64,000 bases of DNA from Acidobacteriota bacterium (GCA_020851565.1 JADZCN010000075.1:19070-83069); one strand, 5' to 3'. Numbered from the stretch's first letter, positions 20,114-37,563 are shown. Numbers and translations: made by a program. Notes: generated by a model not told the origin, from the sequence alone.

Positions 20114-20142
20114 TTGGATGCCCGCGGCCCGCGGGCGTTACC
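20114..20142 (-). promoter_or_regulatory. ECF-type promoter GGTAAC-N16-CATCCAA (leaderless, debranching gene)
   Basis: Motif copy 1; ATG lies 6 nt downstream. Confidence 0.7.
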
Positions 20143-20185
20143 CGGGCGCCCGGCGCCCGGGATGAAGAGGTGGGAACGGGTCCTC

Positions 20186-20214
20186 TGAAACTTCTGTGCG
20201 CCACCCTCATCCAA
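20186..20214 (+). promoter_or_regulatory. ECF-type promoter TGAAAC-N16-CATCCAA
   Basis: Motif copy 2; ends 22 nt before ATG 20237. Confidence 0.75.
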
Positions 20215-20236
20215 TCCGCGGCTGCAAGGAGGACTC

Positions 20237-20452
20237 ATGCTCGCAGTGGCGGATGACAGGACCACGTTGATGCTCTACCGGATTCGTGGCGAGTTCCTCG
20301 AGATGCCGGGACTGCATCTCACTCTGGAACAGGCAGCGCGCTTGTGGCACATCGACGCGGCCACGTGCACGGCAGCGCTCGGTCGGCTGGTGGCCGAGCG
20401 CTTCCTCGTGCGCACGCGGACCGGCGCATACAAGCGGGCCGAGCAGGTCTAG
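20237..20452 (+). CDS. Small winged-helix-like hypothetical protein
   Basis: GGAGGA RBS; RIRGEFLEMPGLHLT..QAARLW...FLVRT..GAY pattern. Confidence 0.75.
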   Translation: MLAVADDRTTLMLYRIRGEFLEMPGLHLTLEQAARLWHIDAATCTAALGRLVAERFLVRTRTGAYKRAEQV

Positions 20453-20460
20453 GTCCAGCC

Positions 20461-21201
20461 GTGCACGCACAACCCGGCCGGCGCGCGCGAAAGGTCTGGC
20501 ACGCGGAGCCGGCCATCGAGGGCGCGCTACTCGCGGTGTTCATGATTTCGGCCATCGCGTTCACCGTGCTCCTGGAGCACCCCGATTCTCCGCTGGGCGG
20601 GATCGTCGCCTCGCCCGTCGCACGCCGGGGCGTGATCGGGCTGGGCATGGCCGCTACGGCGGTGGTCCTGATCTACTCGCCGTGGGGCAGGAGGTCGGGC
20701 GCGCACATGAACCCGGCAGCCACATTGGCGCTGGCGCGCCTGGGCCTGATGCCGGCGTGCTCCGTTCCCGCCTATATCGCCGCGCAGTTCCTGGGCGGCG
20801 CCCTGGGTGTGTGGGCGGCGTGGCAGGTGTTCGGGCCTGCCGTCGCGCATCCGTCGGTGCGATTCGCCGTCACGACACCGGGCCCCTGGGGCGCCGGCGC
20901 GGCCTTCACGGGGGAGTTCGCGATGACCGCGGTGCAGATGGGCGCAGTGTTGACCGCCTCGCGGGCGCGAGCGTGGCGCCCGCGGGCTGGCCTGCTCGCC
21001 GCGGGGCTGCTCGCTCTCTACATCACGGTCGAAGCGCCGGTCTCGGGCATGAGCCTCAACCCGGCGCGCACGCTCGGCTCCGCGGTGTGGGCCGGGGACT
21101 TCACGGCCATCTGGGTCTACTTCTCGGCACCGGTCCTGGGGATGCTGCTGGCCGCCGAAACCGTCCGACGTATGCGCCCCCGGGACGAGGTCATATCATG
21201 A
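20461..21201 (+). CDS. MIP/aquaporin family channel
   Basis: SGAHMNPA and SGMSLNPARTLG NPA boxes; start estimated at GTG 20461. Confidence 0.88.
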   Translation: MHAQPGRRARKVWHAEPAIEGALLAVFMISAIAFTVLLEHPDSPLGGIVASPVARRGVIGLGMAATAVVLIYSPWGRRSGAHMNPAATLALARLGLMPACSVPAYIAAQFLGGALGVWAAWQVFGPAVAHPSVRFAVTTPGPWGAGAAFTGEFAMTAVQMGAVLTASRARAWRPRAGLLAAGLLALYITVEAPVSGMSLNPARTLGSAVWAGDFTAIWVYFSAPVLGMLLAAETVRRMRPRDEVIS

Positions 21202-22769
21202 ACGGGCGCTACGACGTCATCATCATCGGCAGCGGGGCCGGCGGCGGCACCCTGGTCTGGCGGCTGGCCGGGTCCGGCAAGCGCATCCTGATCATCGAGC
21301 GCGGCGATTACGTGCCGCGCGAGAAGGCCAACTGGGACTCGCGCGCGGTCAACGTGGAGGCGCGGTACCACACCCGCGAGGTGTGGCGCGACCGCGACGG
21401 CAAGCCGCTGCACCCCCACACCAGTTACAGCGTCGGCGGCAACACCAAGTTCTACGGTGCCGCGCTCTTCCGGATGCGCGAGCGGGACTTCGGCGAGCTG
21501 GCGCACCACGAGGGGATCTCGCCGGCCTGGCCCATCGACTACGCCGACCTCGAGCCCTATTACACGGAAGCCGAGCGTCTGTACGCCGTGCACGGTGAGC
21601 GCGGGGCGGACCCGACCGAGCCGTGGGCCAGCTCGCCCTACCCCTTCCCTGCGGTCTCGCACGAGCCCCGGATTCAGCAGCTGAACGACGACCTGACACG
21701 CGCCGGCCTCCGGCCGTTCCCCGTGCCGCTTGGTGTACGGCTGGACGAGCACGACCCGCGGCGCAGCCCCTGCATCCGGTGCAGCACGTGCGACGGCTTC
21801 CCCTGCCTGGTGCACGCGAAGAGCGATGCACAGGTGATGTGCGTGGACCCGGCGCTCAGGCACCCGAATGTCTCGCTGATGACCAATGCGCAGGTGACGC
21901 GGCTCGAAACCAGCGCATCCGGACGGGAGGTCACCGGCGTCATCGTGCGCCGCGGTGGGAGCGAGGAGCTCCTGCGGGGCGACGTCGTGGTGGTCAGCGC
22001 GGGCGCCATCAACTCGGCCGCGCTGCTCCTGCGCTCGGCCAGCGACCGCCATCCGCAGGGACTGGCCAACGGCTCAGGTGTCGTGGGCCGTCACTACATG
22101 GGCCACGTCAACTCGGTGGTGCTGGCCATCTCGACCACCCCGAATCCCACCGTCTTCCAGAAGACGCTGGGGCTCAACGACTTCTATTTCGGGGACTCCG
22201 ACTTCCCGTACCCGATGGGGCACATCTCCTTCGTGGGCAAGCTGGACGCGGTCGCGCTCAGCGCCGGCGCGCCGCCGTTCGTGCCGGGCCTGACCCTGGA
22301 TCTGATGGCGAAGCACTCGCTGGATTTCTGGCTCACCTCGGAGGACCTGCCGGATCCGGAGAACCGTGTGACGCTGGACCGCGACGGGAACATCGTCCTG
22401 TCCTACGCGCCGAACAACGTGGAGGCCCACGGGCGGCTGGTGAAGAAGCTCGAGTACCTGCTGGAGCACATCGGCGCGCGGCACATCATCCGGAGGAACC
22501 TCTTCGTGGGCCAGCGCATCCCGCTCGCGGGCGTGGCACATCAGAACGGGACGGTGCGCTTCGGCAGCGACCCGAGGACGTCCGCCCTGGACGTGAACTG
22601 TAGAGCACACGAGGTGGACAATCTCTACGTCGTGGACGGCAGCTTCTTCCCGTCCAGCGCCGCGGTGAATCCCGCGTTGACGATCATGGCAAACGCGCTC
22701 AGGGTCGGAGACCATCTCCTGGACCGGCTGAGGACGACCGTGCAGGAGGTGGCCCATGTGGCGCGCTAG
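21198..22769 (+). CDS. GMC family flavoprotein oxidoreductase
   Basis: IIIGSGAGGG FAD motif, VGGNTKFYGA, Cys cluster CIRCSTCDGFPC, AHQNGT, VNPALTIMANALR. Confidence 0.93.
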   Translation: MNGRYDVIIIGSGAGGGTLVWRLAGSGKRILIIERGDYVPREKANWDSRAVNVEARYHTREVWRDRDGKPLHPHTSYSVGGNTKFYGAALFRMRERDFGELAHHEGISPAWPIDYADLEPYYTEAERLYAVHGERGADPTEPWASSPYPFPAVSHEPRIQQLNDDLTRAGLRPFPVPLGVRLDEHDPRRSPCIRCSTCDGFPCLVHAKSDAQVMCVDPALRHPNVSLMTNAQVTRLETSASGREVTGVIVRRGGSEELLRGDVVVVSAGAINSAALLLRSASDRHPQGLANGSGVVGRHYMGHVNSVVLAISTTPNPTVFQKTLGLNDFYFGDSDFPYPMGHISFVGKLDAVALSAGAPPFVPGLTLDLMAKHSLDFWLTSEDLPDPENRVTLDRDGNIVLSYAPNNVEAHGRLVKKLEYLLEHIGARHIIRRNLFVGQRIPLAGVAHQNGTVRFGSDPRTSALDVNCRAHEVDNLYVVDGSFFPSSAAVNPALTIMANALRVGDHLLDRLRTTVQEVAHVAR

Positions 22770-23766
22770 TGTGGGCGCGCTGGCCGCGCTCGTCCTGCTC
22801 TCCGTCCCCTCTGTCCCGCGCGCCTCCAGTCCCGCGGGGCCGGTAGCGGAGGCCGTGGAGGCGATCGGCCTCACGGTCTCGGACCTGGATCGGGGCGTCG
22901 CGTTCTTTCGCGACGTGCTGACGTTCGAGGTGACGGACCTTTGGGAGCAGTCCGGGCGAAGTACGGAACTGCTGACGGGCGTGTTCGGCGCGCGCACGCG
23001 CACGGCGCGCCTCAGGCTCGGCGCGCAGTTCGTCGAGCTGACCGAGTTCCTGGCCCCACGCGAACGTCCCTTCCCCGCCGACACGCGCGCCAACGATCAG
23101 TGGTTCCAGCACATCGCGATCGTCGTGTCCGACACGGATGCGGCCTACCGGCGCCTGCGGGATCATCGTGTGGCCCACGCCTCCACGGGCCCGCAGCGGC
23201 TGCCCGACTGGAATCCCGACGCAGGCGGGATCCAGGCCTTCTACTTCCGCGATCCCGACGGGCACTTCCTCGAGATCCTGCACTTCCCGCCCGGCAAGGG
23301 CGATCCGAACTGGCAGCGCCGCGATCGTCCCTTCCTCGGCATCGATCACACCGCGATCGTCTCGACCGACACCGAGCGCTCGCTCCGGTTCTACCGTGAC
23401 GGCCTCGGGATGAAGCCGGCGGGCGGCGCAGAGAACCACGGCGCCGAGCAGGAGCACCTCAACAACGTCTTCGGCGTGCGGCTGCGGATCACGACGCTGC
23501 GGGCGAAGGACGGTCCCGGTATCGAGCTGCTGGAATATCTCGCGCCGCGCACGGGCCGGCCGGCGCCGCTCGACCTGAGCGCCGCGGACCTCGCGCATTG
23601 GCACACCACCGTGGTCGCCCAGGGCGCCTCGCGCCTGCTGCGCACCGTCTTCGGAGGCTGGCTCGTATCGCCGGACGTCGTGGCGGCCGACCCGCGCTGG
23701 GGCTTCGCACGCGGGCTGCTGGTGCGCGATCCCGACGCGCACGGGATTCGCGTGGTCGAGCGCTGA
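22756..23766 (+). CDS. Secreted double VOC/glyoxalase-domain protein
   Basis: Signal-like N-terminus; FQHIAIVVSD, YFRDPDGHFLE, IDHTAI, RDPDAH. Confidence 0.88.
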   Translation: MWRASVGALAALVLLSVPSVPRASSPAGPVAEAVEAIGLTVSDLDRGVAFFRDVLTFEVTDLWEQSGRSTELLTGVFGARTRTARLRLGAQFVELTEFLAPRERPFPADTRANDQWFQHIAIVVSDTDAAYRRLRDHRVAHASTGPQRLPDWNPDAGGIQAFYFRDPDGHFLEILHFPPGKGDPNWQRRDRPFLGIDHTAIVSTDTERSLRFYRDGLGMKPAGGAENHGAEQEHLNNVFGVRLRITTLRAKDGPGIELLEYLAPRTGRPAPLDLSAADLAHWHTTVVAQGASRLLRTVFGGWLVSPDVVAADPRWGFARGLLVRDPDAHGIRVVER

Positions 23767-23792
23767 AACGTCTTCGGCGGCGCCCCATCCAA
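23764..23792 (+). promoter_or_regulatory. ECF-type promoter TGAAAC-N16-CATCCAA (internal)
   Basis: Motif copy 3; overlaps the VOC stop codon, upstream of 23849. Confidence 0.75.
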
Positions 23793-23848
23793 GCAGTGTT
23801 CGTTCGTCATCTCGTTCACTTCGTTGAGTCCAGAAGGAGCATTCGATC

Positions 23849-24244
23849 ATGAAGTTCGTATCCTCGATGGCGCTGGCCCTGGTGATCGCCCTCTCCCTCG
23901 CCGGCGGCGCGTTCGCGCAGAGCATGCACACGAGCGGGAAGTTCAGCGGCGCAAAGGTGAACGCCGGCACGGTGACCCACTCGATGCAGGCCGGCATGAA
24001 CGTCCTCACCCTCTCGTCCGAGTTCCAGGTGCCCGACACGCCGGAGCCGCACTGGCAGGTCGTGGACTCGAAGGGCACGGTGTACCTGCTGCAGCGCCTG
24101 GGCATCAAGGGCGACGAGGTGAACACCTCCATCACTTTGCCCGCCTACGTGAAGGACGTCGCCAAGGTGCAGATCTACTGCGCGTGGGCCGAGGCCGTGC
24201 TCGGCGAGGCGTCGTTCTCGGGCACGCTCACCCTCGTTCACTGA
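23849..24244 (+). CDS. Secreted DM13-like protein
   Basis: AGGAG RBS; signal peptide ending AFA; F.VPDTPEPHW and VQIYCAWAEAVLGEA (single Cys) resemble DM13. Confidence 0.65.
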   Translation: MKFVSSMALALVIALSLAGGAFAQSMHTSGKFSGAKVNAGTVTHSMQAGMNVLTLSSEFQVPDTPEPHWQVVDSKGTVYLLQRLGIKGDEVNTSITLPAYVKDVAKVQIYCAWAEAVLGEASFSGTLTLVH

Positions 24245-24257
24245 TTCCTGACGTCTT

Positions 24258-24292: not shown

Positions 24293-24305
24293 GGGAGATT
24301 TCATC

Positions 24306-25322
24306 ATGAAGATCGCCATCACGCTGCTCACTCTCAACGCTCCCAATCGCGTGGTGCTGACGCGCGAGGCCCGGCCCGGGCAGGCGTTCGACATCGCGGT
24401 GTTCGCGGCCAATGGCCCGCTGTCCGATCCGCCGGCCAACCACCTCTGGGTGCGATCGGCGGCCATCGACTTCTATCGGCCCCGTCCCGACGCGCGCCGG
24501 GTCCACGTGACGGTCGGCCAGCGCGATGCCCGCGCCAGCTGGTGCTCCCCGACGCGCCAGTGCTCGAACACCTCGCCAGTGGCTTCCAGTTCACCGAGGG
24601 CCCCGTCTGGAATCCGGCGGACCAATCGCTGCTCTTCTCGGATCCGAACGACAACACCATCTACCGGTGGAGGGACGAGGACGGCGTGTCGGCGTTCCGC
24701 GTGAAAAGCGGCTACACGGGGGCCGACATCGGCCTCCATCATCAGCCCGGGTCGAATGGCCTCGCACTGGATTCGCAAGGGCGGCTGGCCATCGCCGAGC
24801 ACGGCAACCGCCGTGACTCGGCTCGAGAAGAACGGCGCGCTGACGGTTCTGGCGGATCGCCACCAGGGGAAGCGCCTGAACAGCCCGAACGACCTCGTCT
24901 ACAAGTCGGACGGCGCCCTGTACTTCACGGACCCGCCCTTCGGCCTGCCGAAGGTGTTCGACGACCCGCGCAAGGAGCTGGCGTTCAGCGGCGTCTTCCG
25001 GTTGAGAGACGGCAGGCTGGACCTGGTCTCCACTGACCTCGAGGGACCGAACGGGCTGGCGTTCTCGCCGGACGAGCGATATCTCTACGTCACGAACTGG
25101 GACACACGCAGGAAGGTCGTCATGCGGTACGAGGTCCGGGCGGCGTCTGGATCCTTGCCCCTGACGGCACGCACCTCGGCACCGTGCGGCTTCCCGAGCT
25201 GGCCGCAAACATGGCGTGGGGCGACGACGGCCGGTCGCCGTACCCGACGGCACGCACGGGGCTGTATCGGCCCCGAACCCGCATCGGCCGTTCCGCGACT
25301 GGCACAGTCCTTCGGTGACTAC
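24306..25322 (+). pseudogene. SMP-30/gluconolactonase family, fragmented
   Basis: GFQFTEGPVW, GSNGLALDSQGRL, LNSPNDLV...YFTDPPFGL, GPNGLAFSPDE and GVWILAPDGTHLGT are in several frames; the N-terminal domain and DG.K.D segment appear deleted. Confidence 0.85.
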
Positions 25323-25966: not shown

Positions 25967-25978
25967 GCCGTTGCCATG

Positions 25979-26434: not shown

Positions 26435-26452
26435 GAGAGGCGGATGTGGCAG

Positions 26453-27919
26453 TCACTGCGGCGATTGCGCCGTGGCCTTGAAGAACAGCTCGACCGCCGC
26501 GGGATCGAAGTGCGTGCCAGCCTTCTGTCTGAGGAAGTCGTGCACGCGATCTTCCGGCCAGCTCTCGCGGTACGGCCGCTCGTAACGAAGGGCGTCGTAG
26601 ACGTCCGCCACGGCGAAGAGGTGGGCCGCGAGAGGGATGCTCTCCCCCTTCAGCCCGCGCGGGTAGCCGGAGCCGTCCCATTTCTCGTGGTGACAGTACG
26701 GGATGTCGAGTGCGGGCCTCAGGTGGGCCACCGGAAACAGCAGCTCGTAGGCGTAGGTGGGATGCTGCCGCATGCGCGACCATTCCTCGTCCGTCAGCGG
26801 ACCGGGCTTGAGCAGCACGGAGTCGGGAATGCCAATCTTGCCGATGTCGTGCAGCAGCGCTCCACGCTTGACGTGCACGAGCTGTTCCTCGCTCATGCCG
26901 GCGAGCCTGGCCATTGCGACGGTCGTCTCAGTCACGCGTCGCGTGTGCCCTTCGGTTTGATGGTCGCGCAGGTCGAGCGCCCGGGACCACCCTTCGATGG
27001 TGGCGTCATAGGCCAGCTGCAGGTCGAGATGCGCCCGCTGCAGGCTCACCACGGCGCGGCCGCTCTCGATCGCGATGGCTGTCTGCCCGGCAAGGGCCTC
27101 CAGGAAGTCGATCCAGTCCGCCGACGCCGTGAAGGGGGCCCGGTGCATCACGTTGAGCACGCCGATCACCGTCCCCCTCGCGATGAGCGGGACCGCGTGG
27201 ATGGCCTGGACGCCCTCGGCCCGCAGCGCTTCGCGGAGGGGCGCGTCGATGATGGACGAGCCGTCGAGGGTGGGGACGGCGACCGTGCGTCGTTCGAGCG
27301 CCGCCGTGCCGGACGCCCCCTCCCCAACCTTGATGGCGACCGAGAGCGGTGTCGAGCCCTCGTGGCCGGCAGCCGCCGCCGTCTCGAGCATGAGGGTGGT
27401 CGGATTCAGCAGCTTCAGGTTGACGATGTCCGCGCCCAACAGGGTCCTGGTCTCGTCGAGAATGGTCCGGAAGGCCAGATCGAGGTCGACGGTCCCGAGG
27501 ATGGCCCGGTCGATGGCTCGCAGCGCGCGGAGCCTCCGCAACTGCGTGTCGATGGTGGATTGGGCGGCCCTCTGCTCGGTGACGTCCCACGACAGGACGA
27601 AGATGCCTTCCGGCACGGGCTGGGCCCTCAAATCGAACCAGCGGCTCTGCCCGTCCGGGTAGACGAACTCGTTGGTCATCACCGCGGGCACCCGCCCTTC
27701 CATCACCCGCTGGAGCGTGGCGAACATCGGGGTCTGCTCGATGCCGGGGAACACGTCCATCATGCGGTGCCCGACCAGCGCGCCGCGATCTTTCCTGCTG
27801 TGGTGAACGACGGCGTCGTTCACGTAGAGATAACGCCAGTCGGGGCCGATGATCTGGCAACCCTCGAGCAGGTGGTCCAGGATCCCCCTGGAGTAGTCTT
27901 TCGAGCCTCTCGCCGACAT
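26453..27919 (-). CDS. PAS-GAF-HD-GYP phosphodiesterase
   Basis: PAS, GAF (VPLIARGTVIGVL), LHDIGK, HHEKWDGSGYPRGL; GGAG RBS before ATG 27919. Confidence 0.92.
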   Translation of the reverse strand: MSARGSKDYSRGILDHLLEGCQIIGPDWRYLYVNDAVVHHSRKDRGALVGHRMMDVFPGIEQTPMFATLQRVMEGRVPAVMTNEFVYPDGQSRWFDLRAQPVPEGIFVLSWDVTEQRAAQSTIDTQLRRLRALRAIDRAILGTVDLDLAFRTILDETRTLLGADIVNLKLLNPTTLMLETAAAAGHEGSTPLSVAIKVGEGASGTAALERRTVAVPTLDGSSIIDAPLREALRAEGVQAIHAVPLIARGTVIGVLNVMHRAPFTASADWIDFLEALAGQTAIAIESGRAVVSLQRAHLDLQLAYDATIEGWSRALDLRDHQTEGHTRRVTETTVAMARLAGMSEEQLVHVKRGALLHDIGKIGIPDSVLLKPGPLTDEEWSRMRQHPTYAYELLFPVAHLRPALDIPYCHHEKWDGSGYPRGLKGESIPLAAHLFAVADVYDALRYERPYRESWPEDRVHDFLRQKAGTHFDPAAVELFFKATAQSPQ

Positions 27920-28074: not shown

Positions 28075-29160
28075 TCAGCTGGAGCCCGGGAAGCGACGTC
28101 GGTCCAGGACGTGGCCCAGGGCAAGCCGTGCCAGTCGAGCCGGGCTCGTGCCCGCGGCACCCCTTCGCCGATTGGCGGCGCCGATCTCGAAGACCAGGCG
28201 CCACTGCTCGAACAGTGCCCGGTAGGCGCTGGCGATGCGCCGATCGGGATCGTATACGTCCGTGGGCTCGGCGCTGACGCCGTTGAGCTCGATGATCGCG
28301 AGATCCTCCCCGGCTTTGAAGCGGGCGACGTCGCCGTATCGGACGTCGAAGCGCCCGATGCAGAAGCCGGGCACCCGGCGGGCGATGTCGTCGATTCTCG
28401 TGTCCAACTCGGGTGTCCAGAGGTGCGCGCCGCTTCGAAACAGGGTGCCCTGGCAGTGATTGCCAACCGAGCCCAGCGCGAAGCGCTCACCCCGCGGCAG
28501 CACCTGATTCAGGCTGGCGGCATGCCGCTGCAGGAAGACCGGCGCCTGGCGCGAGAAGCGCGAGTGCGACAAGATCAACGCCTCGAGCGTGCGAACACCG
28601 TCGCCTGCAATCACCGGGAACACCTTGTCGGTGATCGAGAGGATCTGCCCGCGCGCGGCGTCGGGATGGCGCCAGTAGAAGATGCCGGCCTCGAATGGGC
28701 CCGGATGCCAGGGCTGCACGACGACGGGATAGTCGGCCGCGCGGAGGTACGCCACCGCTTCGGCGAGGGTCGCCGCCCGCCTCACGCCACTTCCCCGCTG
28801 CCCGACGTCCGGCTTCAGGATGAGGGGAAAACCGTGACCGGGCTGCTCGGCGAACGCGGCGACCGCGCGCGTCCGCCCCGCCAGCGTCCCTCGATCTATG
28901 CGGGCGCTCGGGACGATCCACTCCGCCGGAAGCGATTCGAGGATGTCGTACTTCGACTCCCCGACCAGCCCGCCATCTCGCATGCCCGGATTTGCGGCGC
29001 CGATGGCGCGCCAGCCATGCCGCATCGCGAGCGCCAGGATCCACGGAACCAGCGGCGCGTATGTGGCCCAGACCGGCCAGAACTCGAACGGCGGGAGCCA
29101 GCCCGGGCGGCCCACGGGCGACGCGACAGGTCCTGTGGCGGTCCTCAGGGCGCCAGCCAT
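28075..29160 (-). CDS. ATP-grasp carboxylate-amine ligase-like protein
   Basis: FPLILKPDVGQRGSGV, GNHCQG, GRFDVRY, IIELNGVSAE; N-terminal EFWPxW segment. Confidence 0.85.
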   Translation of the reverse strand: MAGALRTATGPVASPVGRPGWLPPFEFWPVWATYAPLVPWILALAMRHGWRAIGAANPGMRDGGLVGESKYDILESLPAEWIVPSARIDRGTLAGRTRAVAAFAEQPGHGFPLILKPDVGQRGSGVRRAATLAEAVAYLRAADYPVVVQPWHPGPFEAGIFYWRHPDAARGQILSITDKVFPVIAGDGVRTLEALILSHSRFSRQAPVFLQRHAASLNQVLPRGERFALGSVGNHCQGTLFRSGAHLWTPELDTRIDDIARRVPGFCIGRFDVRYGDVARFKAGEDLAIIELNGVSAEPTDVYDPDRRIASAYRALFEQWRLVFEIGAANRRRGAAGTSPARLARLALGHVLDRRRFPGSS

Positions 29161-29579
29161 GTGAGCCCCACGACGATGGCAGTGGTCCACACCACCGCGG
29201 CAATACCCGTGCAGACCACGAACAGCGGCACGGAAATGCGAAGGAGACCCGCTGCCACGTAGAGTGCCACGCGGGTGCCCGGCAGCACCCGGCTCGCGAA
29301 GATCGCCGCGGGCGCTCTGCCCTCGAGTCGTTGCGCGAGGACCTCCAGATCGCCGGCCGGCCACTTGTGCCGCACCCAGCCGCTGACGGGCGCCCAGGTC
29401 CGTGCGAGTCGCCCCGCGGCAAAGAGTCCCACATCGCCGGCCCAGATGCCCAGGGCCACCGCGGCGACCGCGATCGGGGCGGGCAGGTGGCCCGTGCGCG
29501 CCAGGACACCGGCGCCGAGGGCGGCGGCATCTTCCGACACGAACGTGGATGCGGCGAGAGACAGGGCGACCCAGATCAC
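29145..29579 (-). CDS. DedA/VTT-domain membrane protein
   Basis: TFVSEDAA, GIWAGDVGLF, SRVLPGTR; GTGA-coupled to NRDE; overlaps the ATP-grasp start. Confidence 0.85.
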   Translation of the reverse strand: MIWVALSLAASTFVSEDAAALGAGVLARTGHLPAPIAVAAVALGIWAGDVGLFAAGRLARTWAPVSGWVRHKWPAGDLEVLAQRLEGRAPAAIFASRVLPGTRVALYVAAGLLRISVPLFVVCTGIAAVVWTTAIVVGLTWLAP

Positions 29580-30418
29580 CACACCCCTCGGCCCATTCCC
29601 ATCTGCGTCATCTGCGGCTTCTGCTGCTTCTGCGTCAGCTGCGGCTCTTGCAACTTCTGTGTCATCTGCGTGATCTGTGGCATCCGCGTCCTCTGCGGCC
29701 CCCGCCGCCTCTGCCTCATCTGCTCTGTCCGTGTCGAGATGGGCCACCCATCCACCACGGGCCGATAGTGCATCGTCACCCTTCCAGGCGCGAGGATGAT
29801 CTCGGTACAACTCACCGTGCAGGCGTCCGTGCGCGACATCATGACGCTCAGGTGCCGGCGGTCCGGCCACGCGTGATGGTGAAACCGCGCCTGGGCCATC
29901 CAGGGGTCGGGTGCTTCCCGCAGCAACTGGAGAAGCAGGCCGCGCCGCGGTCCCTCCACCAACGCGTCTCCCAGTGACGAGGAGCAGAACACCTGGGCGC
30001 GCCCGACTGGTGTGATGCTGGGCTCCAGGCAGCCGCGCGCGAACACGGCAATCTCCCGCGTCGAGACCGCGATGAGCCTGAACGGCGCGAAGCCGGTGGT
30101 GTCGATGGCACGCCACCCCGTCTCGAGCTCGGCGAGCGATGCGGCCCCGGCCAGCGCCGGTATGAGCGTGCCGCGGCTTGGCGAGCCCGGTCCCGTTCGA
30201 GGGCCGTCGGCGTTCAGGAGGGCAAAGGCCAGCCCGTGATCGCTGGCGGCGATCCAGGTGCCACCGCTGGCGGCATCCACCGGCCAGACGGTGGATACAC
30301 CGCGAACCCGGTGCCGCGCCAGGGGATGCGCGAGCGGCCGCAACCGGCGCTCGTCGCGATTGAAGAGCAGACGGATGGCCGAGAGGTCTGTCGATGTGAC
30401 GACGCTGAGCGTGCACAT
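29576..30418 (-). CDS. NRDE/TANGO2 family protein (Ntn-hydrolase fold)
   Basis: MCT N-terminus, NRDE motif, GGTWIA, SRGTLI; C-terminal tail made of a 9-bp repeat. Confidence 0.9.
   Translation of the reverse strand: MCTLSVVTSTDLSAIRLLFNRDERRLRPLAHPLARHRVRGVSTVWPVDAASGGTWIAASDHGLAFALLNADGPRTGPGSPSRGTLIPALAGAASLAELETGWRAIDTTGFAPFRLIAVSTREIAVFARGCLEPSITPVGRAQVFCSSSLGDALVEGPRRGLLLQLLREAPDPWMAQARFHHHAWPDRRHLSVMMSRTDACTVSCTEIILAPGRVTMHYRPVVDGWPISTRTEQMRQRRRGPQRTRMPQITQMTQKLQEPQLTQKQQKPQMTQMGMGRGVW
29600..29733. repeat. Degenerate 9-bp repeat (CATCTGCGT-like) inside the NRDE 3' end
   Basis: About 14 units such as CATCTGCGT/CTTCTGCTG/GATCTGTGG, read as xQx tripeptides. Confidence 0.8.
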
Positions 30419-30936
30419 CACGCGGCTCCCGCCAGGGACGGCGTCGTCGGGGCGAGCCCGAAACGCTCAGGAAGCCGCGAGGCTCCGACGCGGTGGCCCA
30501 GGAGCGCAATCTGCGCGGCGTGGTGGATGGTATGGCTGATGACGAAGGCCAGCTCACGGGCGACGCTCGACCGGCACTCCACGACCGGCCCGCCGCTGGC
30601 GAGCACGACGCGGACGACGAGGGGCTGTGTGAGCGCGGCATCGGTGTGCCGCGCAAGCCGCATGGCGGCCGACATCAGCGAGAGAACCCCCAGCTCGCGA
30701 TCGCTCTCGATCGCAGTCCGGCGCCGTCGTGCGTCGTAGTCGGCGACGCCGGTCTCGAGGCTGCGCTCGAAGGTCAACACGTGATCCAGGCAGTGGCGGA
30801 CGTGCCCGCCGATGCTGCCCGAGATGCCCTTCACTTCCGACCCGGTGTACTCAGCCGGTGTCAGCTGCGCGATGGCCCGAGCCGTGTCGGTGAGCAGTGA
30901 CGCCAGCGCGCCAAAGCTTCCCGCCGCCCCGGTCAC
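30418..30936 (-). CDS. DinB family protein
   Basis: SIGGHVRHCLDH, YDARRR, RELAFVISHTIHHAA His triad; coupled to DoxX (GTGA) and NRDE (TGATG). Confidence 0.88.
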   Translation of the reverse strand: MTGAAGSFGALASLLTDTARAIAQLTPAEYTGSEVKGISGSIGGHVRHCLDHVLTFERSLETGVADYDARRRRTAIESDRELGVLSLMSAAMRLARHTDAALTQPLVVRVVLASGGPVVECRSSVARELAFVISHTIHHAAQIALLGHRVGASRLPERFGLAPTTPSLAGAA

Positions 30937-31352
30937 GGCCGGCCCCCCGCCGGGCCGTGGCGCAGCCAGGGCCCGACGACCGGCATGGTGGCGCGGTACA
31001 GCCACGCCACGCCAGCCGAAGCCGCACAGACGATGAGCGCCAGCGCGAAGAGGAGGCCGCCGTCGTCCATGACCTCGAGGCCGAGGACAGTGAGGTGGCT
31101 CAGGATGGCACCGCTCATCACGCCGACGCCCAGCAGGCCGCCCAGTGCGGCCGTTGACGGCGCCAGCAGCAGGGCCGCGGTGATGAGCTCCGCGACGCCG
31201 GAACCGATCCGACCCCAGGGCTCGGCGCCGAGCGTCTCGAAGATGTAGACCGACTCTGCGGCGCCGGTGAACTTGAAGAACAGCGTCTGCAGCAGGATGG
31301 CTGCGGCCGTCAGGCGCAGCAGGAGCCCGACCGCTCGCGTCACGGGGTTCAT
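30933..31352 (-). CDS. DoxX family membrane protein
   Basis: ILLQTLFFKFTGAAESVYIF...EPWGRIGSG...MSGAILSHL. Confidence 0.88.
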   Translation of the reverse strand: MNPVTRAVGLLLRLTAAAILLQTLFFKFTGAAESVYIFETLGAEPWGRIGSGVAELITAALLLAPSTAALGGLLGVGVMSGAILSHLTVLGLEVMDDGGLLFALALIVCAASAGVAWLYRATMPVVGPWLRHGPAGGRP

Positions 31353-31361: not shown

Positions 31362-31829
31362 CTATTTCAGTTCCGCCAGCACCTTCGGCCACTGCTGGCG
31401 AGCCTTCTGGATGTAGCCGGGCCGATCCTGGTTCCAGGTGCGTTGCACGCTCTTCGAGTAGTTCAGCTAGAGCGTGCCGTCCACGACCGCGAAGGCCTCC
31501 GGATCGATGTCCACCGCGTATCCCCGGCTGACGCCGTAGGCGCAGTAGCCGCCGAAGGCCGGGGCGTAGCGCTCGGGCTCGCGTGCGAAGGCGTCGCGAT
31601 GGGCTGCCGACGCGAACTGCCAGCGCACGCCGTTCCACGTGTGACTGAACTGTGCCTGGCCCGGGACCGCCTTGCTGTCGGTGAAGTAGGCGACGACGTC
31701 GTAGCCGTGCACGGCCACGCCGGTCTTCTGGTTGTAGGCGGCGCTCGGCGCCTGGCCTCGCACCGTCAGCGCCCCGCCAATTCCGAGGCTGACGAACATC
31801 AGGCAGATTCCATAGAGAAGTCGGTTCAT
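31362..31829 (-). pseudogene. Secreted YHS-domain protein with in-frame TAG at 31467-31469
   Basis: GYDVVAYF, F.S..HRDAF..EPERYAPAFGGYCAYG; the frame continues after TAG as LNYSKSVQRTW...ARQQWP to a stop at 31362. May be a base-call error. Confidence 0.75.
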
Positions 31830-31852: not shown

Positions 31853-31911
31853 TGAGATGCCGCCGATCCGCGGCGGATACATGAAACCCGCGACGGAGGG
31901 GTGGCATCAGA
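31853..31911. promoter_or_regulatory. Back-to-back ECF-type promoters: minus TGTATC-N16-CATCTCA (31881-31853) and plus TGAAAC-N17-CATCAGA (31882-31911)
   Basis: Motif copies 4 and 5; the -35 hexamers are directly adjacent; they face the YHS operon and the GH63 operon. Confidence 0.65.
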
Positions 31912-31936
31912 GGCACGACACGGAGAAGGAGCGCGC

Positions 31937-34636
31937 ATGACCGCCGAGGAGCAACGCCTACAGGAAGACCGGGAGAGAACGCGTCACTGGAAACGCTGGG
32001 GCCCCTACCTGAGCGAGCGCGCCTGGGGAACGGTCCGCGAGGACTACAGCCCCCACGGCACTGCGTGGGACTACTTCCCGCACGACCATGCGCGGTCGCG
32101 GGCCTACCGGTGGAACGAGGACGGCATCGCGGGTATCTCGGATCGCCACCAGCACATCTGCTTTGCGCTGTCGCTCTGGAACGAGCAGGACCCCATCCTC
32201 AAGGAGCGGCTGTTCGGCCTCACCGGCAGCGAGGGCAACCACGGGGAGGACGTGAAGGAGTACTACTTCTATCTCGACTCCACGCCCACGCACAGCTTCA
32301 TGCGGTACCTCTACAAGTACCCGCAGCGCGCGTTCCCTTACGCCGATCTCGTGGAGGAGAACCGCCGTCGGGGCCGAGGCGCACCGGAGTACGAGCTGGC
32401 CGACACGGGCATCTTCGACGACGGCCGCTACTTCGACGTGTTCGTCGAGTACGCCAAAGGTGATCCTGACGATGTGCTGATCAGGGTGCGGGTGCACAAC
32501 CGGGGCCCCGAGGACGCCCAGGTGCGCGTGTTGCCCACGGTCTGGTTCCGGAACACCTGGTCCTGGGACACCGGCGGAGCGCGCCCGTGGCTCGCTCGTC
32601 TGGACGGGGCCGGCGAGGGATGCCAGGTCGTCGCCCTGGACGATCCTGCCTACGGCCAGCGATGGCTGTACTGCGAGGGTGCGCCCGAGCTGCTTTTCAC
32701 GGAGAACGAGACGAACACCGAGCGGCTGTACGGCGTGGGCGGCGGCGGCTTCTACAAGGACGGCATCAACGACGCCGTGGTGAGCGGGCGCTTCCAGGCC
32801 GTGAACGACGCTGGTGTCGGCACGAAGGCTGCCGCGCACTACCCGTTCCTGGTCCCCGCGGGTGGCGTCGTGGAGGTGCGACTCCGGCTCACGGACCGGG
32901 CCCCGAGCGCGTGGCGGGAAGGCCCCTTCAGCGGCGAGTTCGAGCGGACATGGGCCGCGCGCCAGTCCGAGGCGGACGAGTTCTACCGAACGGTGATTCC
33001 CGAGACGCTGTCACCGGACGCGCAGTCGGTGATGAGGCAGGCGCTGGCGGGAGTGCTGTGGTCGAAGCAGTATTACCATTACGTGCTGCGCGACTGGCTG
33101 GCCGGCGACGCGGCCCAGCCGCCGCCGCCGACCGCTCGGATCGGGGGGCGCAATCGCGAGTGGCCACACCTGTACAACGCCGACGTCATCTCGATGCCGG
33201 ACAAGTGGGAGTACCCCTGGTACGCCGCCTGGGACCTGGCGTTCCACTGCGTGCCGCTCGCGCTGGTGGATTCCGAGTTCGCGAAGCAGCAGCTGGTGCT
33301 CCTGCTGCGCGAGTGGTACATGCACCCGAACGGGCAGCTCCCAGCCTACGAGTGGGCGTTCGGCGACGTGAACCCGCCCGTCCACGCGTGGGCGGCCTGG
33401 CGCGTGTACAAGATCGAGAAGAAGCGCCGCGGCGTGGGCGATCGGGTGTTCCTCGAGAAGGTGTTCCAGAAGCTCCTCTTGAACTTCACGTGGTGGGTGA
33501 ACCGGAAGGATGCGGAAGGCAACAACGTGTTCCAGGGCGGGTTCCTCGGCCTGGACAACATCGGCGTCTTCGATCGATCGGCGCAGCTCCCGACCGGGGG
33601 ACACCTCGAGCAGTCCGACGGCACGAGCTGGATGGCGATGTACAGCCTGAACATGCTGGCCATCGCCCTGGAGCTCGCGCGGGAGAACCCCGCCTACGAG
33701 GACACGGCCAGCAAGTTCTGGGAGCACTTCCTCTACATCGCCCACGCCATGAACAATCGCGGCGAGGACGGCATCAGCCTCTGGGACGAGCAGGACGGTT
33801 TCTTCTACGACGTGCTGCACCTGCCGGACGGATCGCGCCGGCCGCTGAAGGTGCGATCGATGGTCGGCCTCGTCCCGCTCTTCGCGGTGGAGACCATCGA
33901 GCCGGAGATACTGGAACGGTTGTCGGGCTTCAAGCGGCGAATGGAGTGGTTCATCACCAACCGGCCGGATCTCACCCGGAACGTGGCGTGCATGCGGACA
34001 CCGGGCAATGGTGAGCGGCGGCTCCTGGCCGTCGTGTGGCCGGACCGCCTGAAGCGTGTGCTCGAGGTGATGCTGGACGAGACAGAGTTCCTGTCCGACT
34101 ACGGCGTCCGCGCCCTGTCCCGGCGTCATCTCGACAATCCCTTCACGCTGGTCGTGGACGGCCACGAACACCGGGTGTCGTATGAGCCCGGCGAGTCGTC
34201 CAGCGGGCTGTTCGGGGGCAACTCGAACTGGCGCGGACCGATCTGGTTCCCGGTGAACTACCTCCTGGTGGAATCGCTGCAGAAGTATCACCACTACCTG
34301 GGCGACGACTTTCGTGTCGCCTGTCCCACGGGCTCCGGGCGCGACGCCTCGCTCCGCGAGGTGGCGGCCGACGTCTCGCGGCGGCTGACACGCATCGTCC
34401 TTCGCGATCACCACGGCCGCCGGCCCGTTTTCGGCGGGCGGCCGCTCTTCAACGACGATCCGCACTGGCGGGAGATGGTGCCGTTTCATGAGTACTTCCA
34501 CGGGGACACCGGCGCCGGCATCGGCGCGAGCCACCAGACCGGCTGGACCGCCCTGGTGGCCAAGCTCCTCCAGCAGTCCGGCGAGCGCGAGCCCGCCGGC
34601 GCGGCCGACCGGGACCATGCCGCCGTCGCGCTGTGA
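31937..34636 (+). CDS. GH63/MGH1-like glucosidase
   Basis: [71 protein letters not shown]. Confidence 0.93.
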
Positions 34637-34649
34637 TAGCCTCCCGGCC

Positions 34650-35267
34650 ATGCAGGCGAGTGCCGGCCCGCCCGTCGCCAGCCTCGACGACGGGGCCCTC
34701 GTCGCCCGCCTTCGCGCCGGAGACGAGGAGGCGTTCGAGCTGGTCGTGCGGACGTACAGCGGGCGCCTCCTGGCGGTGACGAGGCGCATCCTCGGTTCGG
34801 ACGAGGACGCGCGCGACGCCGTGCAGGATGCTTTCCTGTCGGCGTTCCGGAGCCTCGAGCGGTTCGAGGGCGGTTCGCTCCTGTCCACGTGGCTGCACCG
34901 CATCGCGGTGAACGCGGCGTTGATGAAGCTGCGCACGCGCCGGCGCAAGCCCGAGGATCCCATCGAGCCCCTGCTGCCGGTTTACCAGGAGAACGGCCAT
35001 CACCAGGAGACCTTCTCCAGCTGGAACGAGCCGGTGGACGTGGCCATGTCCCGCGCCGAGAACCGCGCACGGGTGCGCGCGTGCATCGAGCAGCTGCCGG
35101 AGAGCTACCGAACCATCCTGCTGCTGCGCGACATCGAAGAACTGGATACGGACGAAGCGGCGCGCGCCCTGGGCATCTCGCCCAACGCCGTCAAGATTCG
35201 ACTTCATCGGGCACGCCAGGCGCTCCGCGGCTTGCTGGCCCCTCACTTCAGGAGTGCGCAGCCGTGA
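34650..35267 (+). CDS. ECF RNA polymerase sigma factor (copy 1)
   Basis: DARDAVQDAF, STWLHRIAVN region 2; NAVKIRLHRAR region 4. Confidence 0.95.
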   Translation: MQASAGPPVASLDDGALVARLRAGDEEAFELVVRTYSGRLLAVTRRILGSDEDARDAVQDAFLSAFRSLERFEGGSLLSTWLHRIAVNAALMKLRTRRRKPEDPIEPLLPVYQENGHHQETFSSWNEPVDVAMSRAENRARVRACIEQLPESYRTILLLRDIEELDTDEAARALGISPNAVKIRLHRARQALRGLLAPHFRSAQP

Positions 35268-35500
35268 CCTGCCGTGAATTCGCCGACTTCATGATGGACT
35301 ACCTCTCCGGGGAGCTCCCCGAGGAGTCGCGCGCCCCTTTCGAGCGCCACCTCTCGCGGTGCGCGAACTGCCACGAATACCTGGCGCAGTACAAGCACAC
35401 CATCGAAGCGGGCCGGCTGGCGTTCACCAACCCGGAGGAGGAAGTGCCCGCCGACGTGCCCGAGGACCTGGTGAAGGCGGTGCTCGCGGCCCGCAAGTAG
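35264..35500 (+). CDS. Soluble zinc-finger (ZAS, zf-HC2) anti-sigma factor
   Basis: GTGA-coupled; TCREF..DYLSGEL...HLSRCANC. Confidence 0.92.
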   Translation: MTCREFADFMMDYLSGELPEESRAPFERHLSRCANCHEYLAQYKHTIEAGRLAFTNPEEEVPADVPEDLVKAVLAARK

Positions 35501-35513
35501 ACGCCCGCTCGCA

Positions 35514-35844
35514 CCGGCGCTCCATTGAGCGATTGCCGATTGACGATTGAGCGATTCACTTCCGATCGGGCGATTGGGGCATTGAGCATTGGATTGGGCG
35601 ATTGGCGCATTGGGGCATTGGCGATTCGCCGCCTGACGCAGTAGCGACGTGACCTGCACTGGGCGCGGGCGATTCGAGTCTCGTCGCCGGCTGGCCGTGA
35701 CGACCCGAATCACTCAGTCACTGAATCGCCCAATCCCTCAATCGCCCGATCACCCAATCGCTCAATCCAACGCCCAATGCCCAATCGCTGAATCGCGCAA
35801 TGAATCGCCCAATCGTCAATCGGCAATCGCTCAATGGGCGCCGG
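35514..35844. repeat. About 330-bp MITE/REP-like element with long terminal inverted repeats made of CGATTG units
   Basis: 35522-35558 matches the reverse complement of 35801-35837 at 36/37 bases; lies between convergent genes. Confidence 0.8.
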
Positions 35845-35865
35845 ACCGCCGCGTAGCGGCGGCCC

Positions 35866-36633
35866 TCACTGCTCCTGGTAGTTCACGCTCAGCCCGCCAT
35901 CCACGACGAACGTGGAGCCCGTCACGTAGGCGGCCTCGTCTCCGGCGAGGAACACCGCGAGCCCGGCCACGTCCTCGGGCTGGCCGAGGCGGCTCAGGGG
36001 AATCTGGTTGAGCAGCGCGCCGAGCTTCCGCGGATCGTTGAGCAGCGCCGTGTTGATGGGGGTCTCGATGGCGCCGGGCGCGATGTTGTTGACCGCGATG
36101 CCCAGCGGGCCGAGCTCCACGGCCAGGTTGCGGGTGAGCATGCGGAGCGCCCCCTTGCTGGCGCAGTAGGCCGCGAAGTTGGGGAACGGCAGGTCCTCGT
36201 GGACCGAGCTGATGTTGATGATGCGGCCCGGGCGGCCGCCCGACCTCAGGTGGCGCACCATGGCCTGGGTGGCGAAGAACGCGCCCTTCAGGTTGATGTC
36301 GATCACCTTGTCGTAGTCCTGCTCGCTCACGTCCCAGAAGGGCGCGTGCTTCTCGATCCCGGCGTTGTTCACGAGGATGTCGAGCGGCCCGAGCGCGGCA
36401 GAGGCCTCATCGACGAGGCGGCGGACATCGTCCACCGAGCCGACGTCTGCCGGCAGGATCACGCCACGGACGCCGTGCGCCGTGACGGCCGCGAGGGTCT
36501 CCTCGGCCGCCCGCGCGGATCCCACGTAGTTGATCGCCACGTTCGCGCCTTCCTGCGCGAACCGGATCGCAATCCCCCGCCCGATGCCCCGGCTGCTGCC
36601 GGTTACGAGCGCATTCTTCCCCTTCAGCCTCAT
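35866..36633 (-). CDS. SDR oxidoreductase, glucose 1-dehydrogenase-like
   Basis: TGSSRGIG, NNAGIE, SSVHE..P.P, YCASK, PGAIETPIN. Confidence 0.9.
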   Translation of the reverse strand: MRLKGKNALVTGSSRGIGRGIAIRFAQEGANVAINYVGSARAAEETLAAVTAHGVRGVILPADVGSVDDVRRLVDEASAALGPLDILVNNAGIEKHAPFWDVSEQDYDKVIDINLKGAFFATQAMVRHLRSGGRPGRIINISSVHEDLPFPNFAAYCASKGALRMLTRNLAVELGPLGIAVNNIAPGAIETPINTALLNDPRKLGALLNQIPLSRLGQPEDVAGLAVFLAGDEAAYVTGSTFVVDGGLSVNYQEQ

Positions 36634-36757
36634 CGTGTTCCTCGCTTCATGCTGACGTCGTTGACGACGAGGCCGACGCCTCGGCACTCCGTGCGCGGAC
36701 AGCTCTGCGCCATGGCCCCCTGTGCAATTGCACCCCTGCACCCTGCACCCTGCACCC

Positions 36758-37498
36758 CTACTGAACATGCCTTCCCCCATCGACGCGAATCGTCTCGCCC
36801 GTGATGAAGTCCGACTCGACGAGGGCCAGCACGGCGCGGGCGATCTCGATCTCACCGCCCCACCTCCCCACCGGCGTCGCACGCGCGACCTCGGCACGCT
36901 CGTCCTCGCTCATGTCCGGCGGCGGCAGGATCGGACCGGGCGCCACGGCGTTGACCAGGATCTGGTCGTGCGCCAGTTCGAGCGCCAGGGTCTCGGTGAG
37001 CGCAATGACCCCGGCCTTGGCCGTGTAGTAAGCGACGAAGCCACGGTAGGCCGGCCGTCCGCTCCGCGCCAGCCAGTCGGCGAAGTTGACGATGCGGCCA
37101 CCGCCCTGGCGGCGCATGTGCGGCGCGGCTGACTGCGCGCACAGGAAGACCGACCGCAGGTTGATGTCGATGTTGCGCTGCCAGTCCTGCTCGGTGGTCT
37201 CCGCGAAATCCTTCGCGGCGTAGATGGACGCCATGTTGACGAGCACGTCGATTCGGCCCAGGCGGGCGACGACCTCGTCCACCAGCGCCTGGCAGTCGGC
37301 CGCGCGGCCGACATCGGCGGTGATGGCGGCGCCCCGGCGCCCGAGCGACTGGACCTCGGCCACCGTGGCCTCCGCTTCGTCTCTCGAGCCTCGATAGGAC
37401 ACAGCGATGTCGGCGCCCCTGGCGGCCAGTTCGCGCGCCACCACCTGGCCGATCCGTTTTCCGCCCGTGATGAGCACCACCCGATTCTTCAGAGTCAT
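36758..37498 (-). CDS. SDR oxidoreductase, pteridine reductase/FolM-like
   Basis: TGGKRIG, NMAS, YYTAK, VAPGPIL, VDGGRH. Confidence 0.85.
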   Translation of the reverse strand: MTLKNRVVLITGGKRIGQVVARELAARGADIAVSYRGSRDEAEATVAEVQSLGRRGAAITADVGRAADCQALVDEVVARLGRIDVLVNMASIYAAKDFAETTEQDWQRNIDINLRSVFLCAQSAAPHMRRQGGGRIVNFADWLARSGRPAYRGFVAYYTAKAGVIALTETLALELAHDQILVNAVAPGPILPPPDMSEDERAEVARATPVGRWGGEIEIARAVLALVESDFITGETIRVDGGRHVQ

Positions 37499-37503
37499 GC
37501 CCA

Positions 37504-37563
37504 TCAGATGAAGGCCGCGACAGGCGGTTTCACCTGTAACCGGTCCAGGGGCGCGGCATCCAA
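37504..37563. promoter_or_regulatory. Back-to-back ECF-type promoters: minus TGAAAC-N16-CATCTGA (37532-37504) and plus TGTAAC-N16-CATCCAA (37535-37563)
   Basis: Motif copies 6 and 7; they face the SDR operon and the ferric reductase-Rieske operon. Confidence 0.72.

Follow-up and report, generated by a model that had tools for sequence, protein, structure and literature searches.

Local regulons run by an extracytoplasmic function (ECF) sigma factor and an anti-sigma factor that binds zinc (ZAS) are a well-known design. The actinobacterial SigR reads promoters of the type GGAAT-N18-GTT, and RsiW, the partner of Bacillus subtilis SigW, is membrane-bound. SigW (ECF245) is described with a TGAAAC -35, a CGTAT -10 and a ZAS-type anti-sigma, and ECF16 (Caulobacter SigF-NrsF, S. 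meliloti RpoE7) with a GTAAC -35, a CGAA or CGTA -10, a six-helix membrane anti-sigma and control of bufferin/DoxX clusters. SigR-RsrA and SigH-RshA (ECF12, Actinobacteria; PMC3177212) use a soluble ZAS switch. In ECF293 (Neisseria sigmaE-MseR, Haemophilus RpoE2-HrsE; PMC2893595, PMC7907618) a short soluble ZAS with a C-X25-H-X3-C-X2-C layout is encoded at +1, the -10 is CGTCTAA and transcription starts 6 nt after it. ECF29 (S. meliloti RpoE8) is described with a C-terminal RCE/D extension, no anti-sigma, and promoters GGGAAC(CT) / CATCCAA(T) with a 16-nt spacer (PMC7826278, PMC6180224). Here we analyse a 64,000-nt stretch of an Acidobacteriota bacterium (GCA_020851565.1, JADZCN010000075.1:19070-83069; hereafter the window), which carries seven elements of the type TGWAAC-N16/17-CATCNNA around a sigma/ZAS pair whose family very probably reads them.

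An earlier note on this DNA had described the seven elements as copies of one ECF promoter motif, and its coordinates, strands and box sequences were all verified, as were the spacers, 17 nt long in one element and 16 nt in the other six (G108 is a congener):

20114..20142, minus strand: P1, GGTAAC-N16-CATCCAA; ATG 6 nt after the heptamer, likely leaderless; boxes unchanged in G108
20186..20214, plus strand: P2, TGAAAC-N16-CATCCAA; start codon 22 nt after the heptamer; boxes conserved in G108
23764..23792, plus strand: P3, TGAAAC-N16-CATCCAA; unpaired; start codon 56 nt after the heptamer; conserved in G108
31853..31881, minus strand: P4, TGTATC-N16-CATCTCA; start codon 23 nt after the heptamer; conserved in G108
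31882..31911, plus strand: P5, TGAAAC-N17-CATCAGA; -35 abuts that of P4; start codon 25 nt on; CATCCGA in G108
37504..37532, minus strand: P6, TGAAAC-N16-CATCTGA; ATG 5 nt after the heptamer; conserved in G108
37535..37563, plus strand: P7, TGTAAC-N16-CATCCAA; start codon 19 nt after the heptamer; conserved in G108

The two ATGs said to lie 5-6 nt downstream are those of P1 and P6, and six of the sites do form three divergent pairs, with -35 to -35 gaps of 43, 0 and 2 nt. The -35 boxes of P4/P5 and of P6/P7 abut, so two polymerases would not fit on such a pair at once. A pattern fitted to P1-P7 after the fact gave 9 matches in the 6.06-Mb genome, 7 of them at 20.1-37.6 kb of the window, and in the comparison with random expectation, which the note had proposed, these 7 stood against a mean of 0.05 and a maximum of 1 in 300 first-order Markov simulations of 22.7 kb. 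With a matrix built from 25 sites in foreign genomes, P1-P7 ranked 1-6 and 9 among the 143 genome matches above 11 bits, but this ranking is partly circular, as the training sites had been chosen with the window-derived pattern. Since the pattern was fitted post hoc, the evolutionary test is the stronger one: G108 retains all seven elements, with 1/91 box positions changed vs 24/113 spacer positions (Fisher p 5e-6). Judged by boxes, spacing and conservation, P1-P7 are almost certainly ECF-type promoters.

The ECF/ZAS pair that the note had placed at 34650-35500 was verified by profile matches, and a second pair lies at 46348-47246:

34634..34642, plus strand: sigma70-like extended -10, TG-A-TAGCCT, 7 nt upstream of the sigma ATG; predicted to act as a leaderless promoter for basal expression
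34650..35267, plus strand: sigA, ECF sigma of 205 aa; Pfam sigma r2 (PF04542) and r4_2 (PF08281); best NCBIfam model PRK11922
35264..35500, plus strand: zasA, soluble ZAS anti-sigma of 78 aa; Pfam zf-HC2, E 1.9e-10; C3-X25-H29-X3-C33-X2-C36
46348..46974, plus strand: sigB, paralogous ECF sigma, 63% identical to sigA; no motif upstream
46971..47246, plus strand: zasB, paralogous ZAS anti-sigma; Pfam zf-HC2

These are the only two members of the sigma family in the genome. sigA has regions 2 and 4 only and scores 96 bits against TIGR02937 (cut-off 42.9), and zasA, the gene at +1, has the C/H-X23-26-H-X3-C-X2-C layout of ZAS proteins; a hydrophobic helix was seen in 0/81 anti-sigma homologs, so these would be soluble. 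The sigma family formed one group in a quick tree (93 rows, support 91), from which a placement against ECF29 was not obtained. Matches to the sigma in PDB and the ESM Atlas were generic ECF relatives only, and no plasmid homologs were found at E 1e-40. The extended -10 precedes the sigma ATG in 19/20 homologs of at least 68% identity and in 26/78 overall, vs 1/78 on the reverse strand; a sigma70 scan of 31.8-38 kb, which requires a -35, gave no matches. A gap of 13 nt with no terminator-like site separates sigA from the GH63 gene downstream of P5, the GH63-sigma order recurs in 7 other genomes, and read-through from P5 into sigA is plausible. The feedback loop suggested for sigA is plausible to that extent, but P5 is probably not its only promoter, as the conserved sigma70-like leaderless element is there too. 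Because sigA lies inside the island and, in the many relatives that have one copy only, this copy is closer to sigA (72%) than to sigB (63-65%), we take sigA as the likelier main driver; sigB shares its -10-reading residues, and cross-talk between the two is expected.

Of 140 homolog loci confirmed after scanning 35/64 parts of the collection, the best 80 were used to seek the reader of the motif, with genes called by a simple codon-usage caller that set some starts off. The window-derived pattern gave 29 matches at spacers of 16 or 17 nt (4 of them in the near-identical L001) vs 7 over nine other spacers. An unbiased word-pair count was restricted to upstream regions (787 regions, 79 loci), as the shared sigma coding sequence dominated unmasked loci; it ranked AAAC-N16-CATC third, with 19 sites in 16 loci where 1.9 were expected, and the two pairs above it resemble housekeeping or ortholog-shared words. 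At spacers of 16 or 17 nt the matrix found 82 sites, 57 of which had not been used to train it, vs 41 over six control spacers; the 82 fall in 38/79 loci. The consensus (T/G/C)G(A/T)AAC-N16/17-CATCNNA was drawn from 92 sites (43 loci); CATCCAA is the heptamer of 29/92 of them and of 4/7 window sites, and ATG offsets show weak peaks at 6 and 9 nt. Acidobacteriota, Binatota, Planctomycetota and other phyla have the motif near their sigma homologs. In 9 loci the gene immediately downstream of a site is the sigma gene and in 6 the anti-sigma gene, with several sites at only 14-16 bits; this placement supports the sigma family as reader. Homologs of island genes also carry the motif upstream (GH63 in 7 loci, YHS in 6, DoxX in 4, the winged-helix protein in 3), and genome G165 has six exact matches no more than 21 kb from its sigma. 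Across 201 genomes of the order the exact pattern had 58 matches vs 7 control matches in the 45 relatives with the sigma. From this linkage, the sigma/ZAS family of the window, proposed in the earlier note as the controller, is the best candidate and very probably the reader of the motif.

The published residue code (Todor 2020 data, PMC7776599, residues mapped on E. coli RpoE) agrees in part with sigA reading the motif. Lys171 of sigA would call for C at -31 (0.98) and Ile172 for T at -34 (0.51), Thr172 of ECF29 for G (0.74), and Leu172 of sigB is flat in these data. Met84, at the RpoE Asn84 position, occurs in 84/93 family members and in 0/8 other ECFs of this genome.

Some homolog loci depart from the common layout. 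In the subclade of L021, L023 and L025 the sigma gene is directly preceded by GAAAC and then AATC(T/A)CA, a possible -10 variant. L058, L067, L068 and L095 encode two family sigmas 3 kb apart, the second being the more divergent, and a winged-helix/TPR regulator gene between the two carries the motif. In seven Binatota-type loci (L033, L041, L047, L048, L051, L054, L062) a small STAS-like domain is fused to the sigma or encoded just before it, and the anti-sigma gene is displaced or missing.

The earlier note had also listed a weaker eighth copy:

26440..26468, minus strand: GCAATC-N16-CATCCGC before the NUDIX gene; 2.1 bits; outside the counted regulon

The site is present and its CATCCG core is retained in G108. 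However, it scores 2.1 bits vs 20-27 bits for P1-P7, its -35 falls within the last part of the coding sequence upstream, and the final A that 90/92 sigma-family sites have is missing from its heptamer. It was left out of the regulon on these three grounds, as unsupported rather than excluded.

The regulon was described as self-contained, which it probably is not. In relatives, exact matches far from the sigma lie before pirin, thioredoxin and an RND adaptor (20 hand-picked sites, several uninformative). Further far matches precede what we take, from their sequences, to be bshC and dksA. Four genes were then compared in a fixed set of 30 relatives and this genome. A CATCNVA box 14-62 nt upstream of trxA (followed by trxB here) was present in 14/14 host-family genomes with the sigma and 0/5 without it, where absence of the sigma had been rechecked with all candidates scored, and two of the contrasts fall within a genus (G061, G073). 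The CATC box of pirin was found in 9/13 host-family genomes with the sigma vs 0/5 without, and outside the family in 5/6 vs 0/1; in 4 relatives pirin has a full TGAAAC-N16-CATC. The trans sites of this genome have GGACGC or GGAACC at 17 nt, 1-2 bases from family variants. On this co-occurrence, trxA probably belongs to the regulon. In L101, L105, L107 and L108 (genus g6) an exact TGAAAC-N16-CATCTGA precedes an RND efflux adaptor, a further candidate target.

Compared with the described groups, the family of the window fails, in its sequences, a defining test of each group tested. It resembles ECF29 in the CATCCAA -10 and the 16-nt spacer, and PRK11922, a proxy for ECF29 that the ECF29-like sigma of this genome passes, is also the best model for sigA and sigB; however, both fall short of its cut-off (179 and 166 bits vs 204), have ZAS genes and no RCE/D tail, and the island -35 is TGWAAC rather than GGGAAC. 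With ECF293 it shares the short soluble ZAS at +1, the cysteine-histidine layout and Msr targets in some lineages, and CGTCTAA differs from CATCYAA at one key base. It differs in the -35, in phyla, which the text of the classification does not list for ECF293 (PMC7826278), and in cysteines: sigA has one in all, vs three in region 4 of most ECF293 subgroups, and a Cys at that column occurs in 20/93 sigma homologs. As for the ECF293 linker trait, the region 2-4 linker of sigA is only about 4 residues longer than that of RpoE/AlgU, with ExxIExLLPxFxxDGH..W conserved. The score of sigA against TIGR02943, a model presumably linked to ECF13, is weak. SigR-RsrA is matched by the predicted trxA-trxB control and the same feedback logic, but zasA does not pass the RsrA model (29 vs 62.5 bits), the redox signature is absent, and many targets are clustered here on one island. 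ECF16 is approached in the AAC-ending -35 and in the bufferin-type clusters that the window's sigma family appears to control in Binatota, and differs in anti-sigma and -10; SigW has the same -35, but its -10 differs and its models are not passed (113 vs 209 bits).

The CATC -10 had been thought new, but CATCCAA is already published for ECF29, so only its pairing with this -35 and with a ZAS partner is new. In the text of the ECF classification "CATC" appears only for ECF18, ECF29 and ECF255 (PMC7826278), and no description of the regulon was found in the literature searched, a scope that left most subscription journals and datasets S1-S2 of Todor 2020 outside. The family was set apart by group descriptions rather than group HMMs and may fall in a described ECF subgroup.

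About 23 genes lie in seven units downstream of the sites, over 22.6 kb (18874-41468). The note's "about 20 genes" under common control holds as a count, although the regulon is probably not confined to the island. Besides sigA and zasA the units contain:

18874..20107, minus strand: amylo-alpha-1,6-glucosidase (glycogen debranching), P1 unit; Pfam GDE_N/GDE_C; four pieces, two gaps
20237..20452, plus strand: 71-aa winged-helix-like protein, P2 unit; weak Pfam MarR_2, E 1e-4
20461..21201, plus strand: MIP (aquaporin-family) channel, P2 unit; Pfam MIP
21198..22769, plus strand: GMC oxidoreductase, P2 unit; Pfam GMC_oxred_N/C
22756..23766, plus strand: two-domain VOC/glyoxalase protein, P2 unit; Pfam Glyoxalase
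23849..24244, plus strand: 131-aa protein with signal-peptide-like N terminus, P3 unit; no Pfam hit
24306..25306 (approximate), plus strand: SMP-30/gluconolactonase, broken, P3 unit; Pfam SGL on two frames
28075..29115, minus strand: 346-aa protein, P4 unit; no Pfam hit; fused to the DedA part in L081
29145..29582, minus strand: DedA/VTT membrane protein, P4 unit; Pfam VTT_dom
29576..30421, minus strand: NRDE/TANGO2-family protein, P4 unit; Pfam TANGO2
30418..30936, minus strand: DinB-like protein, P4 unit; weak Pfam DinB, E 3e-4
30933..31352, minus strand: DoxX-like membrane protein, P4 unit; weak Pfam DoxX_2, E 0.0014
31362..31829, minus strand: YHS-domain (seleno)protein family gene, P4 unit; NF041384 above cut-off; in-frame TAG at 31467-31469
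31937..34636, plus strand: GH63/MGH1-like glycoside hydrolase, P5 unit; Pfam
35866..36633, minus strand: short-chain dehydrogenase/reductase (SDR), glucose-1-dehydrogenase-like, P6 unit; NF005559 above cut-off
36758..37498, minus strand: SDR, pteridine-reductase-like, P6 unit; ATG 5 nt past P6
37583..37938, plus strand: two small membrane-type open reading frames (87 aa, about 30 aa), P7 unit; no Pfam hit for the 87-aa frame
37935..38971, plus strand: ferric-reductase-like (MsrQ-like) membrane domain fused to Rieske, P7 unit; Pfam Ferric_reduct, Rieske
38968..39711, plus strand: 247-aa protein, P7 unit; no Pfam hit; homologs in 4/80 loci
39714..41468, plus strand: OlsF-like bifunctional acyltransferase (amino-acid lipid synthesis), P7 unit; NF052615 361 bits, cut-off 620

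Three target genes are broken: the debranching enzyme, the lactonase and YHS. Contigs of an independent run cover two breaks of the debranching gene and show no differences there, its large gap is spanned by no contig among those listed, and its G108 counterpart has one break. The lactonase and YHS genes are intact in G108; the lactonase break is spanned here by an identical 4.9-kb contig of an independent run, and the in-frame TAG of YHS is also present in an independent contig. A frameshift near 38849, in the ferric-reductase/Rieske gene, was rejected as a one-base assembly deletion in a C run, since 4/4 public runs carry the extra base. Within the island, at 25.3-28 kb, are also a methyltransferase gene, the NUDIX gene and an HD-GYP gene, none of which has a good site. 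We take the 131-aa P3 protein, whose homologs in L057, L083 and L090 also have the motif upstream, to be DM13-like and the 346-aa P4 protein to be ATP-grasp-like, both labels being tentative ones with no Pfam match. The 87-aa P7 frame has homologs in 4/80 loci. In the NRDE gene a repeat of 9-nt period (window 29591-29740) extends the C terminus (TQMTQK-like), and similar units occur elsewhere in the genome.

In other lineages the motif stands before genes for MsrP, an MsrPQ fusion, DoxX, AhpC/TSA, NDH-2-like, HbpS-like and DM13 proteins, and in Binatota before small Cys-rich precursors that head a bufferin-like cluster, a label given by resemblance to the family in PMC11626156. These targets, with thioredoxin and pirin here, are the ground on which we lean towards oxidative or thiol stress as the signal, and a ZAS pair of Haemophilus has been tied to hypochlorite (PMC7907618). 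Sigma and anti-sigma would be made at a basal level from the predicted leaderless housekeeping promoter, and the zinc-bound anti-sigma, as is usual in its family, would hold the sigma inactive until oxidation or metal displacement at the Cys3/His site freed it. The freed sigma would fire P1-P7, amplify itself by read-through from P5, and also drive trxA-trxB and pirin elsewhere in the genome; the co-made anti-sigma would damp the response, and its resetting would fall to thioredoxin, as in SigR-RsrA. What the island would supply is the release and oxidation of glucose (GH63, glucose dehydrogenase and GMC, with a broken debranching enzyme and a broken lactonase), redox proteins of the envelope (DoxX and MsrQ-like/Rieske, with YHS broken) and lipid remodelling. 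Taken as a whole, this picture of island promoters driven by the sigma family, an oxidative or thiol signal, SigR-RsrA-like logic and reach to thioredoxin is the one we favour, with somewhat better than even confidence.

Several observations weigh against it. On the side of the reader, 41/79 sigma-homolog loci have no nearby site by the matrix, 155 genomes of the order in which no sigma was detected still show a pattern excess (97 vs 38 control matches), where up to 15 sigma candidates per genome had been scored and other ECFs use similar boxes, and the kin genomes are not independent. The residue code fits imperfectly: Met84, nearly fixed in the family, is flat and uninformative in the published assay, A is commoner than T at -34 (58 vs 32 of 92 sites), and 24/93 family members have Thr172. 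On the side of thioredoxin, the link between trxA and the sigma did not hold outside the host family (3/7 vs 2/4, start-codon matches dropped), the trxA -35 boxes are heterogeneous (TGACAC, CGTACC, AGGAAC, GGACGC), and an ECF of the type on contig C30 is nearly co-distributed with the sigma in the host family (12/13 vs 1/5). Two other candidate targets were dropped for lack of association there, folE (7/14 with the sigma vs 1/5 without) and brxA/B (3/13 vs 1/5). As to the signal, the redox-sensitive RsrA-type signature is described as acidic residues preceding the first Cys, and Leu followed by Arg/Glu behind the second; zasA has S-R and H-E at these places, and the acidic pair is absent from the profile of 81 anti-sigma homologs. 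In Neisseria none of the oxidants tested induced the ZAS system, according to its description (PMC2893595).

The same promoters and sigma family could instead answer metal (Cu/Zn) imbalance or general or envelope stress, with trxA under another CATC-type ECF and an island that is largely local. The missing RsrA signature would fit such a signal, as would the bufferin-like clusters under the motif in Binatota, bufferins being copper-induced (PMC11626156); genes for sugar mobilisation and lipids are not classic ones for thiol repair, and the deviant trxA -35 boxes and the co-distributed C30-type ECF point the same way. However, only two genomes separate the C30-type from this sigma and both favour the latter: the trxA box is present in G119, which has the sigma and in which no C30-type was found, and absent from G073, where the situation is the opposite. 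The C30 -35 TCCAAC stands at none of the trxA sites, pirin keeps its full site in the 4 relatives mentioned, and MsrP and AhpC/TSA are among the targets elsewhere. We regard this explanation as unlikely, though it deserves to be taken seriously.

That another ECF of this genome reads the sites, the ECF29 sigma of contig C116 being the most plausible one, and that the ZAS pair is a mere neighbour, is very improbable. Two further sigmas of the genome could read CATC, the one on C116 and the one on C30. The C116 sigma (C116:20568-21110, L126) has an RCD tail, scores 281 bits with PRK11922 and has its own GGGAAC site, the upstream GGGAACCT, and the published ECF29 -10 and spacing (PMC7826278, PMC6180224) are those of the island; the description of ECF29 lists only Proteobacteria and Bacteroidetes (PMC7826278). 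But GGGAAC is the -35 of 0/7 window sites and 1/92 family-linked sites, the latter count being lowered by a matrix built from non-GGG sites, and the motif precedes the family's own sigma and anti-sigma genes. An ECF29-like sigma was found in 3/13 host-family relatives and 3/13 distant motif-bearing genomes (none found in 10/13 of each), and a C30-type ECF in 2/13 of the distant ones, so neither type explains the island motif. The gene of the C30 sigma is itself preceded by a promoter, TCCAAC-N17-CATCCAA (C30:73884-73912, L127), that is likely leaderless and autoregulatory, and a second site of this type lies before a serine-hydrolase-like gene (C43:130133). A textbook ECF29-like promoter, GGGAACCT-N17-CATCCAAT, precedes folE (C101:40190, L124); as GGGAACCT-N17-CATCCAA it is kept in several relatives, some with no ECF29-like gene found.

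That a dimeric transcription factor uses the elements as operators, with paired -35 inverted repeats, or that they are relics of local duplication, is hardly credible: the inverted hexamers of P4/P5 and P6/P7 are 0 and 2 nt apart and a small winged-helix gene lies within the island, but the gap between paired boxes varies (0, 2 and 43 nt here, 0-23 nt in other loci), P3 is unpaired, the spacers differ between copies and evolve freely, and every site has its second box at a fixed 16-17 nt and faces a start codon.

For promoters read by the sigma/ZAS family, a wider proposal can be made, which we hold tentatively and at slightly less than even confidence: that Met84 and TGWAAC-N16/17-CATCNNA mark an ECF/ZAS group, undescribed in the classification text searched, that is the SigR-RsrA equivalent of a Vicinamibacterales branch, runs thioredoxin from a fixed slot by hspR-dnaJ-clpB-ftsH, has in Binatota, Planctomycetota and Myxococcota been connected to modules for Msr, bufferins and sugar oxidation, and uses a zinc switch without the known redox signature. 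For a soil and wastewater lineage that is abundant but barely studied, the locus offers a promoter, a regulator and a regulon that can be tested, and it would place a dozen uncharacterised proteins (YHS, DoxX, DinB, NRDE/TANGO2, DedA, the MsrQ-like/Rieske fusion and GH63 among them) in one stress response. It suggests that ZAS-switch control of thioredoxin arose outside Actinobacteria with another sigma group, and this family and ECF29, with a common -10 and different -35 boxes, form a natural pair useful for the ECF specificity code.

The GC content of the region is that of the genome, its closest named homologs are in Vicinamibacterales, and the window DNA occurs in wastewater and sludge metagenomes. 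Pieces of the region, the non-target HD-GYP gene among them, occur in contigs from two RNA runs, which are not informative for expression or start sites. In relatives the sigma/ZAS pair occupies the same slot, truA-WYL-[variable]-sigma-zas-(TerC)-hspR-dnaJ-clpB-ftsH, which suggests that the neighbourhood is old and has eroded to varying degrees, and is not a recent import. What we recognise from translations as a WYL-domain regulator (17817-18800) and an hspR-dnaJ-clpB-ftsH-like run (50598-56492) bracket the island here. Between the convergent anti-sigma and SDR genes lies a large imperfect hairpin (window 35522-35837) of GATTG/CAATC units, with 37-nt arms that are 97% complementary; resembling units occur 3' of trxB on contig C109, and the hairpin is probably a REP-like (repetitive extragenic palindromic) genomic repeat.

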